Positions 8,758-55,363 of a stretch of 64,000 nucleotides of DNA are shown piece by piece (the stretch's first letter is position 1; the number at the start of each line of letters is the position of its first letter). The stretch is taken from contig JBDRHA010000006.1 of the NCBI GenBank assembly GCA_043817235.1, positions 78,401-142,400 on the forward strand, read 5' to 3'. The stretch comes from Candidatus Shapirobacteria bacterium. GTDB lineage: Bacteria; Patescibacteriota; Microgenomatia; UBA12405; BS750m-G30. Below the pieces are notes generated by a model. The model was not told the DNA's origin. It worked only from the letters and a program-made list of their open reading frames with translations, and made no database searches. The translations under genes were made by a program, and so were the position numbers.

Positions 8758-9783
8758 TTGTCAAGGGAAGTAAGTATAAAAAAGTGGATAAAAGTAACTA
8801 AATATGATATAAACAAGCTAATGTTAGAAAGATATGGTATTTTTCCGGCTGAAGTCAAGAGAGATTTTTCCCGAGAAGTAATTTTGGAGACTGGTCAGAC
8901 AGCCATGCTTCAAAGACTGGCCTTCGAAGATTTTGGGGGCCAAGTGCCGGTTTTAACGACTGGGAGGCTGGAAAACGCTTCTTCTATTGCCATGCTTTTG
9001 CCAGGATCAGTGCCGACAATGGAGCTGGAGCACAAAGCAGCCACTTATTATTCTCTTGTTGCAGAACAACTAGCCGATGCGGGAGTGACTAGTGTGCTTT
9101 TAGCTAACTGGTCTGGCTGGCCGCGCGACTATGGCCCATATATCAATTCCTTTTCTGCTTTTAGCTGTAAACCTCAGTCCGTAGGTGAGAAAATTGATTT
9201 AATTAGCTGTCTCCGGCAATGGATAAGAAAACAAACTGATCCAGACACGCCTCTTTTAATGGTTGGCCATTCCAGCGGCGGAGGTGCGCTTTTAAGAGTT
9301 TCCGATAAACTATTAAGAGGTGATTCTTGTTTGAAAATTATCGCTGATGCTCCAACAGCAATTGGAGCAGATTCCAGAATAACTAGAACTTTTGGCAAAT
9401 TAGCTAAAGCTGGGGGAGTGGGGGCGGCAATCCGCCTTACCCGGAATTTGCCTGAAAGCTGGCAGGAGAGGATGATGACTCAATACGGCTTAACTGTTTC
9501 TCAGGCTAGAGCCGATCAATGGATAGGGCTTAATGCCCAGTTTAGCCCGCACCAAGTGGCAAATAGAGAAGTGCAAGAAGAGCATGAGTATTTAAGAACA
9601 ATGGGCCCAGTTCGTTTTTTAAGCAGAGAGGTAAGAATTTTGATAGGAGAGAACGATCCCTTGGTTGCTAAAAGTAAACTTAAGGAGATAGCGGGCGTCG
9701 AACCAGAAGTTTTAAAGAATGGCAATCATTTTACGGCTCGCACTGATCCGGATCAGTATGCTCGAGTTTTATTAAGAAGCTGA
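8758..9783 (+). CDS. Alpha/beta-hydrolase-fold protein (putative esterase/lipase)
   Basis: Nucleophile elbow 'GHSSG' (GxSxG). Confidence 0.5.
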   Translation: MSREVSIKKWIKVTKYDINKLMLERYGIFPAEVKRDFSREVILETGQTAMLQRLAFEDFGGQVPVLTTGRLENASSIAMLLPGSVPTMELEHKAATYYSLVAEQLADAGVTSVLLANWSGWPRDYGPYINSFSAFSCKPQSVGEKIDLISCLRQWIRKQTDPDTPLLMVGHSSGGGALLRVSDKLLRGDSCLKIIADAPTAIGADSRITRTFGKLAKAGGVGAAIRLTRNLPESWQERMMTQYGLTVSQARADQWIGLNAQFSPHQVANREVQEEHEYLRTMGPVRFLSREVRILIGENDPLVAKSKLKEIAGVEPEVLKNGNHFTARTDPDQYARVLLRS

Positions 9784-9784
9784 T

Positions 9785-9842
9785 TTTCTCAAAACATCGG
9801 AATTATACAGGAAAACAGGGGAGATGTGTAGTTATGGGATTA
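9785..9842. repeat. Direct repeat copy 1 (about 55 bp, 'ttttc..aaa..acggaattatacaggaaaa.ag.g.agatgtgtagttat.ggatt')
   Basis: About 88% identical to 11376-11434. Each copy abuts the stop codon of a minus-strand gene. Confidence 0.7.
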
Positions 9843-10628
9843 AATAGTCTGATCAGGGAGCATAAATTCTTTTTCGTCTACCTTTATGTTTAATACGGTC
9901 GCTTTGTAGCTTAATTCAGTATTCATATTGCCATAATATGGCGTGTTTGCAGATAATATAATAGACATTTCCAGAGGGATAGCAGTTTGTTTGTCTAAAC
10001 AAAAAGTTATTTCTGCCTTATCCGGTTCTGTTTTGTAAACTTCCCTATAATATCTTAGGTTTTCCGAAAGACTACTTTCCACCATTATTACATCTGCTTC
10101 AAAAAGACGGCACTTTCTGTTAATAATTTCTTTTTCTCCCAGATATGAAAGATTTTCGTTGGTTAAATGGTTGAAGACCAGGCTTAATCTATCTTCAGGT
10201 ATTACATTTTCATTATTCGATAATGGATCTTTAGTTAGGGAATGTGGTTGACAAGTTAATGGGCCTATTGGATGGGCTCCGGTATTATCACTTATAAATA
10301 CTGGAGTAATACAGGAAAAGCTGCCTTCTGGTATTTCATAATATAGCTGAGTTGAGCCATCTTGAATAACATTGTCCTTCAGATGTTTCGTGATGGTTTT
10401 TGTTTTGCCATTTGAGCGAAAAACATCTAAAAGTTTAATTTCAGGGATTTCAGTGGGTTTGGAGCTATAAGCGACTTCATAATTTATTTCATATTCAACC
10501 GCTTGCTTATTAAGAGTACTTTGTAGAACGAATCGAGGCATTCGAACATAATTTATTATCCCAGCGACGGAAATTACAGCGAAAGAAAAAACAGCTATTT
10601 TAAGCATTAAGAAAAAATGTTTTCTCAT
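9840..10628 (-). CDS. Secreted/anchored hypothetical protein
   Basis: N-terminal signal-anchor 'MRKHFFLMLKIAVFSFAVISVAGII'. 262 aa. Confidence 0.5.
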   Translation of the reverse strand: MRKHFFLMLKIAVFSFAVISVAGIINYVRMPRFVLQSTLNKQAVEYEINYEVAYSSKPTEIPEIKLLDVFRSNGKTKTITKHLKDNVIQDGSTQLYYEIPEGSFSCITPVFISDNTGAHPIGPLTCQPHSLTKDPLSNNENVIPEDRLSLVFNHLTNENLSYLGEKEIINRKCRLFEADVIMVESSLSENLRYYREVYKTEPDKAEITFCLDKQTAIPLEMSIILSANTPYYGNMNTELSYKATVLNIKVDEKEFMLPDQTI

Positions 10629-10738
10629 CTAGACTATATTATCAATAAATAGCGAAATATTCAAAATATAAAAGCACCTGGGGCGGGTCGGAAAGCGGCA
10701 AGCCGCGTTTGTTTCCCACCTTCCAGGTGCTCGTCTTC

Positions 10739-10924
10739 TCATGCGGAATCCTCCTCCTTTTCTTCTGGCGGTGGCTTGAAGGGCCACCAAATTCCTGTGG
10801 CTAGCAGAAGCCACAGGATGAGAAACGTCAATCCCAAAAGAGAACCGACGACTAGCCAAAAATCCGTCATGGTAGAAAGACGTTCGCCCATGAGACAGGC
10901 GGTTTCAACAAGAGTGAGACTCAT
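10739..10924 (-). CDS. Small hydrophobic protein (61 aa, one or two TM helices, Pro/Glu-rich tail)
   Basis: ATG preceded by AAGGAG, 7 nt upstream. Lies in a GC-rich segment. Confidence 0.5.
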   Translation of the reverse strand: MSLTLVETACLMGERLSTMTDFWLVVGSLLGLTFLILWLLLATGIWWPFKPPPEEKEEDSA

Positions 10925-10935
10925 TTTGCACTCCT

Positions 10936-11102
10936 TTAGCAGTTTCTGGTCCAGTTGACGAAGCCGATGGCCACAAGGGCTATGCCGATCATGACTATCG
11001 GGAACGAAGATTTAGGCTCTCCAGGTCTTTCCCTGAGACTTAGGAAAAGGCCGACGATAATAGTCAATATCCCAGCGATGATGGTGAGTTGCGACGCAGT
11101 CA
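10936..11102 (-). CDS. Small membrane protein (55 aa, 2 TM). Not in the supplied ORF track because it is under 60 aa.
   Basis: Translates to MTASQLTIIAGILTIIVGLFLSLRERPGEPKSSFPIVMIGIALVAIGFVNWTRNC. AAGGAGG Shine-Dalgarno upstream. Confidence 0.5.
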
Positions 11103-11104
11103 TC

Positions 11105-11305
11105 TTATCCTCCTTTTGTTGCAGTTAGAACTTGAAGAATAAAACCTGCTAGTAATACTAGCAGGCCGACCAAAAGGAAGAGCTCGCTTTCGAGCTCGAA
11201 CCTTTGGTTTTTCCCTCCCGTCACCCGGTAGATGACGGCGAAAATTAGGGCCAAAAAAACAAGCCCGCCTCCGAAGACCATCAGAGCAATCGGGAAAAAG
11301 GTCAT
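11105..11305 (-). CDS. Small membrane protein (66 aa, 2 TM)
   Basis: AGGAGG Shine-Dalgarno upstream. Tandem with the two genes above. Confidence 0.5.
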   Translation of the reverse strand: MTFFPIALMVFGGGLVFLALIFAVIYRVTGGKNQRFELESELFLLVGLLVLLAGFILQVLTATKGG

Positions 11306-11375
11306 CTCGCCCTCCTTTTTGGGCTATCCGCATGATGTTAAAGTACTGAAACCTTTACCCGCGCGATTGCGAGCA

Positions 11376-11434
11376 ATTTTTCAAATTAACGGAATTATAC
11401 AGGAAAATAGAGAAGATGTGTAGTTATAGGATTT
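11376..11434. repeat. Direct repeat copy 2
   Basis: See copy 1 at 9785-9842. Confidence 0.7.
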
Positions 11435-11723
11435 ATGAAGTATCTTTTAGATACCTATTTAACATGGATGTTATTGATCTTCTTCCATAGCCGCTTTTTA
11501 GATATATTTCTCTTTTTTTAGCATCAATTCTGTTTAGAAAAGCTTCGTAAAATATTAGTTTGTAGGGTAGGTAGGGTTTTGTGGCTTGGCTTTTGCCTTT
11601 ATTATGTTGGTTAAGTCGTTTAATTAAGTTGGTAGTATAGCCAATATATAAACTTTTATTTTTCTGACTCTGTAAGATGTATACGTAATAAAACATGGCG
11701 AGACGTAATAAATTGCTTTGCAA
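11433..11723 (-). CDS. GIY-YIG nuclease-superfamily small protein (UPF0213/YhbQ-like)
   Basis: 'YYVYIL...SLYIGYTTNLIKRLNQHN' GIY...YIG motif with conserved R and N. Confidence 0.75.
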   Translation of the reverse strand: MQSNLLRLAMFYYVYILQSQKNKSLYIGYTTNLIKRLNQHNKGKSQATKPYLPYKLIFYEAFLNRIDAKKREIYLKSGYGRRSITSMLNRYLKDTS

Positions 11724-11778
11724 TTTAAACGTCTCTGCAACGTTTAAATTTTCTTGACAAAGAAAATTTATTACGTTG

Positions 11779-11901: not shown

Positions 11902-11976
11902 TGGTGTCCCCGGAGGGAATCGAACCCCCAGTTCCTCCTCCGCAGGGAGGTGTTTTATCCGTTAAACTACGGAGAC
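11902..11976 (-). tRNA. tRNA-Arg (anticodon GCG, unusual; should be checked), genome-encoded CCA
   Basis: Acceptor GTCTCCG/CGGGGAC, D arm GTTT/AAAC, anticodon stem CCTCC/GGAGG with loop CTGCGGA, T arm GGGGG-TTCGATT-CCCTC, then ACCA. Confidence 0.6.
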
Positions 11977-12913: not shown

Positions 12914-13171
12914 TTAACTTTTTGTACCCAAATTATCTAGTATTTTTCTTAGTTGTCTTCGCCCCCAAGAGGTTTTGAAATGACTTTCACGACTAAAAGC
13001 CTCATGCTTATCTGCGTACTCTTCTTTATACCAGAGGATAAATGGAATTCTATTCTTTGTAGATTCTACTTGACCTGAGTTATGCAGCTTAATTCTTTTT
13101 TCTAAATCTTTTGTACATCCTACGTATGTTCTTTTATCTTTGATACTTTTAAGGACATAGACGGTATACAT
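12914..13171 (-). CDS. GIY-YIG nuclease-superfamily small protein (paralog of 11433-11723)
   Basis: 'VYVLKS..KRTYVGCTKDLEKRIKLHN'. Confidence 0.75.
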   Translation of the reverse strand: MYTVYVLKSIKDKRTYVGCTKDLEKRIKLHNSGQVESTKNRIPFILWYKEEYADKHEAFSRESHFKTSWGRRQLRKILDNLGTKS

Positions 13172-30283: not shown

Positions 30284-30292
30284 TTTCCCCTC

Positions 30293-30322
30293 TTGACAAA
30301 AACCCATATTAGACCTTATACT
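30293..30322 (+). promoter_or_regulatory. Sigma70-like promoter (TTGACA, 18 nt spacer, TATACT) upstream of the GC-rich candidate ncRNA
   Basis: Near-consensus -35 and -10 hexamers right after the dprA stop. Confidence 0.45.
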
Positions 30323-30328
30323 TCGCCC

Positions 30329-30684
30329 AGTGCTATTTGGCAATCACCTATTCCTTTTGACATTGGCGTCGAAAGAAGGTGGGTTGCTCACCGGGAGCCC
30401 TGTAGACCTTAAGGAGGTCAGATGCATAGAATCAGGGCTGTTTTACCGGAGGGGAGATAGCTTTTTTTGCCGGAATCAAGCCGCCGGCACCGGCAGGTAG
30501 CTTTTCTCTCCTAAAAAACTAGCGAGGGTCGGGCGGCAGGCCCAAAAGGTTCTTTTACAGGTGGTGCTGGGATCGGACACAGACGAGATCGGGGTTTCGC
30601 GCTTCTTAGCGCAGTTGACTCACTGTCATATACCCCTTTTTTCTTGTCGCTTTTTGTCCTCCCCCAGCACCACCCCAGTTTTTC
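30329..30684 (+). ncRNA. Candidate structured non-coding RNA of unknown class (about 355 nt)
   Basis: No ORF over 60 aa. About 55% GC in a roughly 38% GC background. Numerous local hairpins (UGCCGG..CCGGCA, GCGCU..AGCGC). Long-range 12-bp helix GGTGGTGCTGGG (30560-30571) / CCCAGCACCACC (30663-30674) followed by TTTTT. Confidence 0.35.
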
Positions 30685-30749
30685 AATCTTTTTTAACTTT
30701 CCCCACTAAATACTAAAATTTCTAATCTCTTCTCGACGGTGAGCAGATT

Positions 30750-31397
30750 TTGATAAAATGCAATATGAACGAAACAGATGAATTTCTAGAAAAATTGGGT
30801 ATTAAACCAGCCTCTTCGGATTTTAACGATTTTATTAGGAAAACTAAAGAAAAAGCAGAAAGATCTAGGCCCGGATCAGATCAGAGACTGGTAGACTCTC
30901 TTCGCACATTCAATAACGAAATTGCAACAAAAATAGATTTAGTTTACTACCCTTGTTGCGGTCTTGATATAAGTCCGTCAGTTGCTTTTCCTGAGAGCAA
31001 GGTTGTCTACGTGGATAGCGATCGGATGACTATTAATAAGCTTATCTTAGCGGGATACGAGGCTCATAATGCATCGGCGCTGGAATATCAACTTAAACAG
31101 AAGGCTGACATTGTATTAATAGTGAATCCTACAGATATTGATCTTAATAACATATGTCAACAAGCTGGCGGCAATGGTTTTGTTTTGTGCAATAACTACC
31201 ATGCAACCGCTACCGCCATGGCGAGTAATGAGGATTACGAATTGACCGGCTATCTTGATTGGAGTGAAGAAGAAAGTAAGTATGTAGAAGACAGAAAAGA
31301 AGCGCTTGAGGAAATGAGGAGCAAAAGAGATGTCGATATTTTGTTTGTTTTTAGAAGAAAAGCAGATGCGGAAGGCTTTGATCGAATATCTCAATGA
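30750..31397 (+). CDS. Hypothetical protein, possibly Rossmann-fold methyltransferase-like
   Basis: 'LVYYPCCGLDISP...KVVYVDSD' resembles SAM-MTase motifs I/II. Weak. Confidence 0.4.
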   Translation: MIKCNMNETDEFLEKLGIKPASSDFNDFIRKTKEKAERSRPGSDQRLVDSLRTFNNEIATKIDLVYYPCCGLDISPSVAFPESKVVYVDSDRMTINKLILAGYEAHNASALEYQLKQKADIVLIVNPTDIDLNNICQQAGGNGFVLCNNYHATATAMASNEDYELTGYLDWSEEESKYVEDRKEALEEMRSKRDVDILFVFRRKADAEGFDRISQ

Positions 31398-37871: not shown

Positions 37872-38672
37872 TTATATAGATTCCCACAGGAAATGATCGT
37901 GCGGAGGATCAAGGTCCTGGTTGAAATGTATCATGTGCTGGAATTCATGAACCAGAACAGATTTGAAGTCTTCGGACGCTAGGCCTATCCCATCAACCTG
38001 AGAAAGATTGATGTAGAACATCTCTCTTTCATTGGACCTAAGCTCTCCCCACCGCCCTGCGTCGACTGGATCGGGATATTCGTCTACCATGAAAAACACA
38101 CCAAGCCAATTGGGGTTGGTCACATCGTGGTTCTGTTGCAATAGAATTGTGAGCCTCTCGTCACCATCTCTTCCGGGTTTCCATTCGCCCCCGAACGTTG
38201 CCACAACCTTCTCATAGTCCTTGTCGAAGGCGCTAGCGAGGGCATCGAGAGCCTCTTCTGACACAGCCTGACCGTTTTCCACATACAGGTAAGCATGCGT
38301 ACCCGTAACCTGCAGAGTAGCAGTGATTTGCATCTGCGTGTATGTGCCATTGCTGCTCGTCAGGACCCAAAACGGCCTCTGCTCACCTACCTGTTCGGTT
38401 ATCACTCGTCCGGCCGCGTCTACTTTCCCCGCCGCCGAGAGTTCTGCAAGTGTTGGATCTGGACAGGGCACATTCCTGCTAACCCAATCAGCCAGCTCAT
38501 GCAACCTGGCCGTCCCACAAAACGCCCCCGCATTAAGTCCAGAGGCAGCAGGCAAGGAGCTAGGCTCTTGAGCCCAAACTGGCCAGTCAATCGATAGGAG
38601 AATGAATGAGACCATAACCAACGCAAACACAGAACCAACGGAGCCGAACCACTTTCTTCTTGACTGGATCAT
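37872..38672 (-). CDS. Secreted zinc metalloprotease-like protein (HExxH), probably C-terminally truncated at the island junction
   Basis: N-terminal TM/signal 'VFALVMVSFILLSIDWPVWA'. 'HEFQHMIH' motif only about 17 aa from the stop. The GC-rich coding sequence ends within two codons of the AT-rich flank. Confidence 0.45.
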   Translation of the reverse strand: MIQSRRKWFGSVGSVFALVMVSFILLSIDWPVWAQEPSSLPAASGLNAGAFCGTARLHELADWVSRNVPCPDPTLAELSAAGKVDAAGRVITEQVGEQRPFWVLTSSNGTYTQMQITATLQVTGTHAYLYVENGQAVSEEALDALASAFDKDYEKVVATFGGEWKPGRDGDERLTILLQQNHDVTNPNWLGVFFMVDEYPDPVDAGRWGELRSNEREMFYINLSQVDGIGLASEDFKSVLVHEFQHMIHFNQDLDPPHDHFLWESI

Positions 38673-38851
38673 TGCGATGCCTCCTGTGTGCTAATGGAAG
38701 CTAGAGAAGTACGGCAATAACGACCAAACAAGGAATGCAAGCGGCATGCATAGCCCATCGGCCGCCATCGAACCCACCGAGCTCTACACGGTTACTGTGG
38801 CGAGGTCGCAGCCTTGACCTTTCCTCAGCAAATTATCTCACGTGCTAGCAG

Positions 38852-39343
38852 CTAAGGGCTTGTCCCTGGCGAACCCAGGATCTCGTAACTCTGCACTTCG
38901 ATCAAACTTTCCTCGATGTAGCCTCTTGCTTGAATGTTCACGCTGCCCTCGCTAGCTAGCTCCCGCAACTCCTTTGCGTACTCACCAACAATCCCGTAAT
39001 TTCTTCCCTCGGGAGTCTCCAAGGCTAGCACAGCAAAAGGCTCATTTCCCGCTAATCGAATGCGGCCAACTACTGCCACTAGCTCCCTGTCTTCATCGGT
39101 AACAGGTGAAGGGCTCGAAGCCGGGGATGGGAGTGATTCTCGGATAGGCATCACGATGGTGCAACACACTAGGATCAAAGCCGATAACAATGCCACTAGC
39201 AAGACAAGTGCTGCCGCGACACGAAATCTCACGAGGCTCCGCATGGCTCTTTCGAATCCCCTGTTGTCCACAGGAATGATATTACCAATCTGGAGGTCAA
39301 GAATCAACGCGAGCGCCCACCACTCAGCAATCGCGTTGCGCAA
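38852..39343 (-). CDS. Hypothetical membrane-anchored protein (GC-rich island)
   Basis: TM 'AALVLLVALLSALILVCCTIVM'. The strand assignment is uncertain because high GC yields long ORFs on both strands. Confidence 0.3.
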   Translation of the reverse strand: MRNAIAEWWALALILDLQIGNIIPVDNRGFERAMRSLVRFRVAAALVLLVALLSALILVCCTIVMPIRESLPSPASSPSPVTDEDRELVAVVGRIRLAGNEPFAVLALETPEGRNYGIVGEYAKELRELASEGSVNIQARGYIEESLIEVQSYEILGSPGTSP

Positions 39344-39783
39344 GGCTTGTTACTTGTTAGAGGAACGACGTTTACCCAAGCAGGGATTGTCGACCGTGAT
39401 GGCAAGGAAGGAAGGGACGTTCCGCAGTCGACTAAGGTGAAGAAGAGCAAGATGTACGATAGGTTCTGCTCTTCAAAAAACCGCGCCTCATCGAGGCACC
39501 TACCAATCATTGAAAGACTACCACAGAACCTGATTCCTGTCAAATTTGCCATGGAGAGTGCGGGAAAGCCAGAACAACCTTCTGCACCCGGCCACAGAGC
39601 CAAAAGTACCACCCGTTCCCGAAAAGCCGGCTACTCCTATGGCCTGCTCGCGGTCACTTGTGTAGCATACACTCATAGAAGTACGCTCGCCCGCCGTTTT
39701 CCAGCACTCTCCCACGGTGGGATCTCACACCCACCCTCACACCGCATCTTCAAACTGATCCGTAGCCACCCACCGAGACCCAA

Positions 39784-40419
39784 TCAGTCACTGATCATCC
39801 CCATCCGCTCCAAATCCTTCAAAGCGGACCTATACGACAACCCCTTCACTTCGGCATACAGGGAGACGGCATTGCCAACCCTGAAATCGTGAAAGCAGAC
39901 CCACCTTCCCACTCCCCCTGGATTTGGATAGACAGCAAAGGAGTGGTGAGATTCCTCATGAAGCGGGCACAGGCCCGTGTAATAGGCTCCCCTATCCTCG
40001 AGTTGAGTGAAGAGGCGGGCCACCGCCACCACGTCCGCCTCGGGCACATCAATCGCTTCTCTCCTTCTCCGCCCGGGCCTGCGCTCCGAGACCTCGGCAA
40101 CAGCCTTCCCCACAGCATCCCTATCGACCCTTACCACCTTGTCCAAGTAGTCGAGCTGCTCGCTTAGATTCCTTCCCACCCGCTCCAACGACTCTGGATC
40201 CAGGAAACCATAGCGCTCTCCGGTCACCCGATGTACGCCCAGAGGACCTCGCACCAGGGACCCGTAGCCTCTCGCCGAGATCCTGTCTTGCTTGGGGCTA
40301 CAACTTTTTGGGTGATTGAAAATAAAGAGATTGTAAAAATGTATTGGAGCTGGGAAACAATGGCTAAATATCCAAGGGAAATGTTTTCCTCGCCCCGCCT
40401 TCTTTATTGGGCGGTGCAT
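39784..40419 (-). CDS. CHC2-type (DNA-primase-like) zinc-finger protein; probably a primase N-terminal remnant. The real start is likely well inside this ORF.
   Basis: 'CPLHEESHHSFAVYP...WVCFHDFRVGNAVSLYAEVKGLSYRSAL' matches the zf-CHC2 signature (CPFHxExxPSFxV...CFGCG...). The motif sits at the C-terminal end of the ORF and no primase catalytic domain follows. Confidence 0.4.
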   Translation of the reverse strand: MHRPIKKAGRGKHFPWIFSHCFPAPIHFYNLFIFNHPKSCSPKQDRISARGYGSLVRGPLGVHRVTGERYGFLDPESLERVGRNLSEQLDYLDKVVRVDRDAVGKAVAEVSERRPGRRRREAIDVPEADVVAVARLFTQLEDRGAYYTGLCPLHEESHHSFAVYPNPGGVGRWVCFHDFRVGNAVSLYAEVKGLSYRSALKDLERMGMISD

Positions 40420-40626: not shown

Positions 40627-40929
40627 ATGAATACTTTAGGTTTCTCTTTTGTTGGGAGCTATGAACTAAGAAAAGATTTGCCCCTTTTAATAAAAAGTTT
40701 AAATAAAAAAAGAGGAGAAGTAGTGGTTACACAAAAAGGCAAGCCGGCGGCGGTTCTATTGTCTTTGAAGAGATATTCAGAGTTGAACTTGTTGACTGAG
40801 GAGTTAGAGGAGGCAATTAGAGAGATGGCTGATAAGCGAGAACTCCAAGAGCTCTTGCGGGAAAGAGAAGAGATTAAAAAAGGAAAAGGAAAAGAGGCTG
40901 AGGATTTATTTAAAGAACTGGGAATCTGA
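40627..40929 (+). CDS. Type II antitoxin, Phd/YefM family
   Basis: 'VVVTQKGKPAAVLLSLKRYSEL' Phd/YefM fold signature. Directly precedes the toxin gene. Confidence 0.7.
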   Translation: MNTLGFSFVGSYELRKDLPLLIKSLNKKRGEVVVTQKGKPAAVLLSLKRYSELNLLTEELEEAIREMADKRELQELLREREEIKKGKGKEAEDLFKELGI

Positions 40930-41187
40930 ATGTATAGAGCATTGTTCGGCCGGAAAGCGCAAAAATCCTTAAGAAAAATTCCCAAAAGATATCAAATTAA
41001 AGTTAAAGAAGCTGTACTCAAACTAAAAGACAACCCCTTTTGTTATGGCACAATTAAGCTTTCGGGTTATTCTGTAGCTGAGTATCGTCATCGAGTAGGA
41101 GATTATCGAATTCTTTTTGATATTTGGGAAGAAAAAGAGAGAATTTTAATTTTAGATATCAAAAGAAGGACCTCTACTACTTATTAA
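40930..41187 (+). CDS. Type II toxin, RelE/ParE (YoeB-like) family
   Basis: 'YRHRVGDYRILFDIWEEKERILILDIKRR' RelE/ParE signature. 85 aa. Start abuts the antitoxin stop. Confidence 0.7.
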   Translation: MYRALFGRKAQKSLRKIPKRYQIKVKEAVLKLKDNPFCYGTIKLSGYSVAEYRHRVGDYRILFDIWEEKERILILDIKRRTSTTY

Positions 41188-55284: not shown

Positions 55285-55363
55285 GCCGAAACTCCTGGTT
55301 GTCAAATATATTTTTTCAGGGTAAACTTTGATGTGATTATAAAAAAGGAGGTGGATGTTTTGG

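Follow-up and report, generated by a model that had tools for sequence, protein, structure and literature searches.

A GC-rich, probably acquired islet for three predicted small membrane proteins next to a two-copy direct repeat in a Candidatus Shapirobacteria contig

Are three very short open reading frames (ORFs) in a GC-rich patch of a bacterial chromosome real genes, and do the two direct repeats that bracket them, together with a fourth gene, mark the ends of a single inserted module? This question is raised by a locus in a 64,000-nucleotide (nt) stretch of DNA, hereafter the window, from Candidatus Shapirobacteria bacterium (assembly GCA_043817235.1, contig JBDRHA010000006.1, positions 78,401-142,400 of the forward strand), which GTDB places in the lineage Bacteria; Patescibacteriota; Microgenomatia; UBA12405; BS750m-G30. 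The original prediction, made from the letters of the DNA, took the whole 1.6-kb interval between the repeats as one inserted module delimited by target or recombination sites. The explanation favoured here, with moderate confidence, is that the GC-rich 0.7 kb is an acquired islet carrying one minus-strand operon for small membrane proteins, while the repeats are a duplication of a host spacer. The repeat-bounded 1.6 kb is probably not one module. What looks like a "cassette bracketed by repeats" seems instead to combine two features that have nothing to do with each other and share a boundary by chance.

The three ORFs lie in tandem on the minus strand, and their predicted coordinates and lengths have been confirmed: ORF A (11105-11305) encodes 66 amino acids (aa), ORF B (10936-11103) 55 aa, and ORF C (10739-10924) 61 aa. 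Each begins with an ATG, which is the earliest possible start of its frame. The near-perfect Shine–Dalgarno (SD) sequences reported earlier can be read directly as AGGAGG (11311-11316) 5 nt upstream of ORF A, AAGGAGG (11109-11115) 5 nt upstream of ORF B, and AGGAG (10931-10935) 6 nt upstream of ORF C. The ORFs are packed tail-to-head: the SD sequence of ORF B is situated within the last codons of ORF A, the ATG of ORF B is 1 nt past the ORF A stop, and the SD sequence of ORF C directly follows the ORF B stop. Such packing is consistent with translational coupling. Neither frameshifts nor internal stops are present in any of the three, and no paralogy was found among them or with the rest of the window.

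According to the Kyte–Doolittle scale applied in 19-residue windows, ORFs A and B each encode two hydrophobic helices, as had been proposed for all three. The product of ORF C, in contrast, has a single long hydrophobic segment (residues ~18-49), and its C-terminal tail, PPPEEKEEDSA, is acidic. Among 3000 dinucleotide shuffles of the segment, none contained three SD-preceded ORFs and none contained three ORFs with transmembrane (TM)-like segments. On the whole minus strand, only seven ORFs of at least 50 aa are preceded by an SD sequence, and ORFs A, B, and C are three of them. The overlapping ORFs of the opposite strand and of the other frames were rejected as genes: they are basic, lack SD sequences, match no family, and contain no TM-like segments apart from one marginal window in a plus-strand 57-aa ORF.

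The predicted operon also appears to be equipped with its own transcription signals. A candidate σ70-like promoter on the minus strand (11394-11422, TACACA-17-TATAAT, 10 of 12 matches) lies within the right-hand repeat, ~90 nt ahead of the ORF A start codon. It is followed by a GC-rich leader of 71 nt (11306-11376, minus strand) that extends up to the repeat edge and carries the SD sequence of ORF A. At the opposite end, an intrinsic terminator (10660-10732, minus strand) is formed by a hairpin at 10672-10732 (-34.7 kcal/mol, z -3.6), which starts 6 bases downstream of ORF C, and by a U-tract at 10660-10671, which overlaps the -35-like hexamer of the next gene, encoding a 262-aa protein. No terminator-like site was found on the plus strand within 10660-11433, the sole plus-strand site being at 11934-11950. 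With a start codon, a ribosome-binding site, an open frame, and a non-random product for each of them, and with the tight packing, the promoter-like site, the terminator, and the outcome of the shuffles, ORFs A, B, and C look like real, expressible genes despite their size, in agreement with the original prediction.

The base composition of this region is unusual. Over 150 nt at a time, GC content reaches 0.44-0.53 across ~10650-11400, versus 0.28-0.37 in the flanks. The segment 10662-11376 has a GC content of 50.1%, a level attained by only 0.4% of 715-nt chunks of host DNA; in the rest of the window it is 40.8%. The right half of the interval is indeed GC-rich, as noticed earlier, although its left edge, originally put at 10650, lies at ~10672; the GC-rich part is 10672-11376 (50% GC) and includes the terminator hairpin and the 71-nt leader. 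No target-site duplication surrounds it: one 6-mer is shared by the two sides, as is the case for 74% of random pairs.

GC content at third codon positions (GC3) is 0.51, 0.63, and 0.52 for ORFs A, B, and C, respectively, versus 0.365 ± 0.07 in host 60-codon windows. When the same peptides are re-encoded with host codon usage, a total GC of 0.41-0.45 is predicted, and the observed values are 3.0-4.0 standard deviations higher (z of 3.6, 4.0, and 3.0 for total GC and of 2.8, 4.2, and 1.5 for GC3 in the order A, B, C), while z is below 0 for neighbouring host genes. Since the observed GC exceeds that of the re-encoded peptides, the excess is not a by-product of hydrophobic residues. The SD sequences point in the same direction: a five-base SD core at any candidate start is found in 3 of 45 long host ORFs versus all three small ORFs. 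GC above the host-codon prediction, combined with SD sites that are rare in the host, marks the small-ORF half as compositionally foreign even after correction for amino-acid content, codon usage being one of the checks suggested in the original prediction.

Extensive searches have not revealed any relatives of the three peptides. Neither ORF A (alone) nor ORFs B and C (concatenated) have a homologue among 5.8 billion clusters in a word-indexed search. Full HMMER against 1.84 billion representative proteins, performed for ORF A, likewise gave none, ORFs B and C being covered by word-indexed or pattern-based methods only. Nothing similar to the three ORFs was found by tblastn in 50,697 phage genomes, in IMG/VR, or among PDB sequences, and the DNA of the GC-rich segment has no match in plasmids by blastn. 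Pfam, PHROGs, NCBIfam, and PADLOC yielded only sub-threshold, composition-driven matches, the best being PF16082 (Phage_holin_2_4, for ORF A; 18.4 bits, cut-off 30) and NfeD_membrane (18.2 bits, cut-off 26). Judged by these searches, the small membrane proteins are lineage-restricted orphans. Exact-sequence look-ups of ORFs A, B, and C, of the protein encoded by the fourth gene of the interval (262 aa), and of two GIY-YIG proteins from the neighbourhood showed that none of them is on record. The original prediction had treated a lack of conservation of the small ORFs as evidence against them; formally they are unconserved, as no homologue was found, and this result does not tell young orphans from junk.

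The lack of relatives gives some weight to the idea that the three ORFs are non-functional relics of a foreign fragment, neutral cargo still intact because of its recency and not yet decayed. The failure of ORF A and of ORFs B and C to match anything in the collections named above, the lack of a family match above any curated cut-off, and the unusual character of SD-led initiation in this host are all in line with this idea, and a truncated primase fragment in a second GC-rich island (see below) indicates that decaying foreign DNA does occur in the window. However, the signals of the operon are intact throughout, with three ATGs, three strong SD sequences, spacing fit for coupling, a perfect terminator, and no frameshifts or internal stops. 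Moreover, host genes starting, e.g., at 55355, 57825, and 58739 share the SD core, which shows that the host ribosome can read an SD sequence. Relics are, on balance, an unlikely explanation, though one to be taken seriously.

The two repeats of the original prediction, R1 and R2, are confirmed. They are direct, 57 nt long, identical at 49 of 57 positions (86%), and each abutting a minus-strand stop codon. R1 (9785-9841) fills the entire gap between the stop codons of the convergent gene for a hydrolase (9781-9783) and the 262-aa gene (9840-9842). R2 (11377-11433), AT-rich and host-like, comes directly after the stop codon of a GIY-YIG gene (11433-11435) and directly upstream of the GC-rich segment. 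The repeat finder gives a start-to-start spacing of 1592 nt, and gapped local alignment shows that the similarity is confined to ~58 nt (9783-9841 and 11376-11433) with sharp ends and no extension into the flanks. The perfectly conserved blocks CGGAATTATACAGGAAAA and GATGTGTAGTTAT each occur exactly twice in the 64 kb, with 0-0.15 expected. No third copy was detected in the window by short-word blastn. The promoter-like site present in R2 is also found in R1 (9802-9830, minus strand), where it faces the 3′ end of the hydrolase gene in antisense orientation. Both hexamers lie in blocks identical between the two copies, all 8 mismatches falling outside them; as the mismatches are few, this conservation is no more than suggestive.

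R could be excluded as a structured RNA or a terminator: its minimum free energy is 0 to -6.7 kcal/mol on either strand (z -1.3 to +0.8), no better than that of shuffles, and Rfam contains no family that matches it. An RNA copied from its minus strand would be rich in C and poor in G. Read on the plus strand, R1 continues the frame of the hydrolase gene beyond the TGA stop as FSQNIGIIQENRGDV (9781-9831), and R2 in the same register reads IFQINGIIQENREDV (11376-11423), with two of three changes in the conserved part being synonymous. This in-frame reading, which would matter if TGA were read through, is probably a coincidence.

Apart from the small ORFs, the interval between R1 and R2 holds only the 262-aa gene (9840-10628, minus strand), which encodes a membrane-anchored protein that matches no family. 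It is AT-rich (GC3 0.27) and, like the GIY-YIG gene beyond R2, lies on the AT-rich side of host composition. An AlphaFold model of the protein (predicted local distance difference test, pLDDT, 40.5) was too poor for a fold search. The 262-aa gene has no SD sequence; between its ATG and a -10-like hexamer TAATAT (10636-10641) there are 7 nt. Apart from identical sequences, its product has one homologue, P0002, which shares 64% identity and is encoded on a 1267-nt ENA contig (L023), where the start is of a comparable leaderless type (~200-245). Both genes lack an SD sequence, and in both the conserved MRKHF start is separated from a -10-like hexamer by 7 nt (10629-10664 in the window), which suggests a leaderless mRNA. 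On L023, no small ORF is found in the 242 nt upstream of the homologue and no R downstream of it; the flanking genes are also absent from this contig of 1.3 kb. Downstream of the homologue, at 1056-1267, the otherwise AT-rich contig becomes GC-rich, hairpin-rich, and non-coding, with no match in Rfam.

These data bear directly on the view that the whole R1–R2 1.6 kb was inserted as one module through R, either by a Campbell-type single crossover of a circle with one R or by a cassette-like site-specific event, with R1 and R2 as the two junction copies. In its favour, the direct repeats bracket the interval exactly, each at a stop codon, and R1 occupies an entire intergenic gap, as expected for a unit consisting of a gene and R. 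The fact that the GC-rich DNA ends on the right exactly where R2 begins keeps a Campbell-type insertion of a composite circle alive, and the flanks of the L023 homologue differ on both sides, so that the 262-aa gene may itself be mobile. Nevertheless, the composition of the interval is composite, GC3 of 0.27 in the 262-aa gene standing against 0.51-0.63 in the small ORFs, and the strong terminator together with the separate leaderless-type promoter splits the R1–R2 interval into two independent units. The homologue on L023, accompanied by neither R nor small ORFs, also speaks against a single module. No integrase, transposase, or other recombinase was found when 18 ORFs located between 99 and 19277 (~9 kb on each side) were scanned with Pfam, the remaining ORFs there being too short for a recombinase, and none is encoded inside the interval. 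R itself has no inverted-repeat structure and no attC core or inverse-core motifs, its pattern is not found in metagenome and viral collections, and its two copies have diverged by 14%, with identical runs of 18 nt at most. The role of recombination or target sites assigned to the repeats in the original prediction is accordingly not supported, given the lack of a fold, of attC cores, and of a recombinase among the scanned ORFs, and insertion of the whole 1.6 kb as one piece is considered doubtful.

Comparison with other genomes added little on this point. The hydrolase used as a query has no relative in genome or metagenome collections, and with IscS the best relative obtained for synteny is 58% identical; only 208 nt of its contig lie upstream of the matching region.

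Several observations weigh against an acquired operon with a host-spacer duplication. By its dinucleotide signature the segment does not differ significantly from the host, 19% of host chunks being equally distant, although this measure does not decide the matter for a piece of such length. As ORFs A, B, and C have no homologue, they provide evidence of neither purifying selection nor a donor, and the ratio of nonsynonymous to synonymous substitution rates (dN/dS) cannot be calculated. The only independent contigs, L022 and L024 from Logan, are 100% identical and come from one run, SRR27458547, so they carry no population or comparative information; a Logan contig break at 10735 is uninformative, as contigs of this run break about every 1.4 kb. 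The conservation of the promoter hexamers in R is not significant (estimated P ~0.13 that none of 8 mismatches would fall on 12 of 57 positions), and the promoter-like site in R1, antisense to a gene and with no obvious target, is odd for a promoter element. Finally, since the GC-rich DNA stops on its right side precisely at the border of R2, R may instead have taken part in the insertion.

With these reservations, the acquired islet still appears to be the best explanation. It would extend over ~10672-11376, possibly minus the terminator, and would have been horizontally acquired between host genes. Transcription would start at the σ70-like promoter in the host-like R2, run through a leader of ~80 nt and the three ORFs, and end at the intrinsic terminator. 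The products, two 2-TM hairpins and a 1-TM protein whose tail is acidic, are predicted to be integral to the membrane, and three proteins made from one message would most likely act there jointly, as a small accessory module. Since the composition is foreign, the SD sequences are strong, and no large partner gene is present, membrane-acting mobile cargo is ranked above a housekeeping subunit set; the likeliest type would be cargo of mobile DNA for, e.g., membrane permeabilisation, immunity, or exclusion. The copies of R would have arisen by local duplication of host-type intergenic DNA, with R2 supplying the promoter or being recruited as one. What has been observed is the anatomy of the locus, the foreign codon composition and unusual SD usage of the small ORFs, their lack of homologues, and the host-like character of the 262-aa gene. 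That the promoter is active, that the ORFs are translated together, and that their products enter the membrane, act jointly, or have any particular role is inferred, the cargo role solely from the anatomy of the islet.

Two further explanations have fared worse. R might be the recombination or boundary signal of mini-cassettes that shuffle units of "gene + R" with the help of a trans-acting recombinase or of none at all, in which case the peptides of this ultra-small, uncultivated bacterium would represent a new family of effector and immunity proteins that act on membranes and travel with the cassettes; this is a long shot. That the GC-rich segment is an artefact of assembly or binning, with another organism's DNA joined into the contig, is hardly credible: its composition is sharply unlike that of the flanks and the source is apparently a metagenome assembly, but it spans only 0.7 kb and is flanked to the left and right by host sequence within a 64-kb contig, the separately built Logan contig L022 crosses the left junction between the terminator and the 262-aa gene and shows 0 mismatches over 1356 nt (possibly from the same reads), and the U-tract of the terminator is interlocked with the promoter that serves the 262-aa gene.

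The presence of foreign GC-rich DNA on this chromosome is not limited to the islet. A second, larger GC-rich island (37872-40419, minus strand; GC 0.52-0.58, GC3 0.55-0.63, z 4.8-7.8 versus host codon usage) is located between murB and a Phd/ParE toxin–antitoxin pair (40627-41187). It encodes two orphans, one of 266 aa (with an HExxH motif and a hydrophobic segment at the N-terminus) and one of 163 aa, as well as a truncated primase-type fragment of 211 aa in which an AEP-primase tail is joined to a CHC2 DnaG zinc ribbon. No relatives of this island were found in IMG/VR. The island was probably left behind by a mobile element, and, with its primase fragment and the same shift in codon usage, it indicates that the chromosome carries foreign GC-rich DNA. 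The dinucleotide distance between the small-ORF segment and the second island (p ~0.05) is weakly suggestive of a common origin.

The genes surrounding the interval form its context. On the left, the 262-aa gene converges with a gene for a protein with an alpha/beta-hydrolase fold (8758-9783, plus strand). On the right, the GIY-YIG nuclease-domain gene (11433-11696, minus strand; 87 aa from its ATG) lies directly downstream of the genes for tRNA-Ser and tRNA-Arg and outside the foreign segment. A second GIY-YIG gene (12914-13171, minus strand, 85 aa), whose product is 37% identical to the first, is located directly downstream of tRNA-Thr. To judge from the sequences, the pairing of GIY-YIG with tRNA genes is recurrent and does not stem from recent duplication. 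"GIY-YIG + R" as a mobile unit was rejected, given the 37% identity of the two paralogues and the absence of R at the second one. The spacer between tRNA-Ser and the start of the first GIY-YIG gene (11697-11777) contains nested inverted repeats, ACGTAATAAATT...AATTTATTACGT around AAACGT...ACGTTT, which may constitute a processing or terminator element after the tRNA. The neighbours with Pfam matches include genes for glycosyltransferases, an Rrf2 regulator, a formyltransferase, a deformylase, an M50 peptidase, and a copper ATPase; none of the 18 scanned ORFs was found to carry an endolysin, spanin, or muralytic domain or to encode part of a large membrane complex.

Elsewhere in the window, a dprA-like gene is followed by a 465-nt GC-rich non-coding gap (30284-30750), which contains a near-consensus promoter, TTGACA-17-TATACT (30293-30322). 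The region 30325-30650 folds to -125.9 kcal/mol (z -3.46), and 0 of 100 shuffles fold as well. The gap has no match in Rfam even at E<=1 and received no tmRNA call, and 30325-30650 is a candidate for an unclassified structured RNA.

If the peptides are made, the islet adds to a poorly sampled lineage a set of co-expressed orphan small membrane proteins, one of which falls below the usual annotation cut-offs. It would also show that a GC-rich foreign operon with strong SD sequences can come under the control of a host-type promoter even where the genome itself seldom relies on SD sequences. As an example, the islet is useful for the annotation of small proteins and for following the transfer of genes to reduced genomes, but it opens no new mechanism and settles no open question.

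Several known systems should be considered for comparison. Integron cassettes, with their attC sites (59-base elements), also have repeats of ~57-60 nt right after the stop codons of successive same-strand ORFs, as well as similar repeat copies within an array. Unlike attC, R forms no imperfect-palindrome hairpin, and neither R1 and R2 with 40-nt flanks, on either strand, nor the whole window contains a RYYYAAC...GTTRRRY pair; without a hairpin and these cores, R was ruled out as an attC site. In addition, there is no IntI-type integrase among the scanned ORFs, and the interval holds its own promoter-like sites, a terminator, and four ORFs.

Phage holins (class II with two TM segments and class III with one) and lysis cassettes resemble the present locus, whose tandem genes on DNA of foreign composition encode products of 55-66 aa with one or two TM helices and charged tails, and ORF A gives the weak, sub-threshold match to Phage_holin_2_4 mentioned above. 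However, the scanned neighbourhood has no endolysin or spanin, PHROGs, the phage genomes, and IMG/VR contain nothing similar, the tail of ORF C is acidic and not basic, and no dual-start motif is present in the small ORFs, whose context consists of housekeeping enzymes, glycosyltransferases, and tRNA genes instead of a lysis cassette. Type I toxins (Hok, Fst, Ldr, TisB) are likewise small, hydrophobic, membrane-directed peptides encoded on accessory DNA, but they are produced from one tightly repressed ORF, whereas here three presumably co-transcribed ORFs have strong, exposed SD sequences; the search for an antisense RNA gene or an Rfam family of a type I system gave only chance-level Fst/Ldr matches (fstAT, E 0.68).

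Small subunits of membrane complexes (CydX, KdpF, CcoQ, AcrZ) are comparable in size and in their one- or two-TM topology, and the packing of the small ORFs suggests matched expression. In contrast to these subunits, which share operons with large partners, the small-ORF operon is self-contained, no gene for a large membrane protein adjoining it.

The closest parallel is provided by horizontally acquired islets of orphan genes, short insertions of atypical composition beside tRNA genes. The present locus differs from them in its length of 0.7 kb, in having neither an integrase nor a tRNA-derived att repeat, and in that its flanking repeat is a host-like spacer that brackets more than the foreign part. 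At the same time, it shares with them the atypical GC and GC3, translation signals atypical of the host, products without relatives, tRNA genes a few hundred bases away, and a second island of the same composition within the window.

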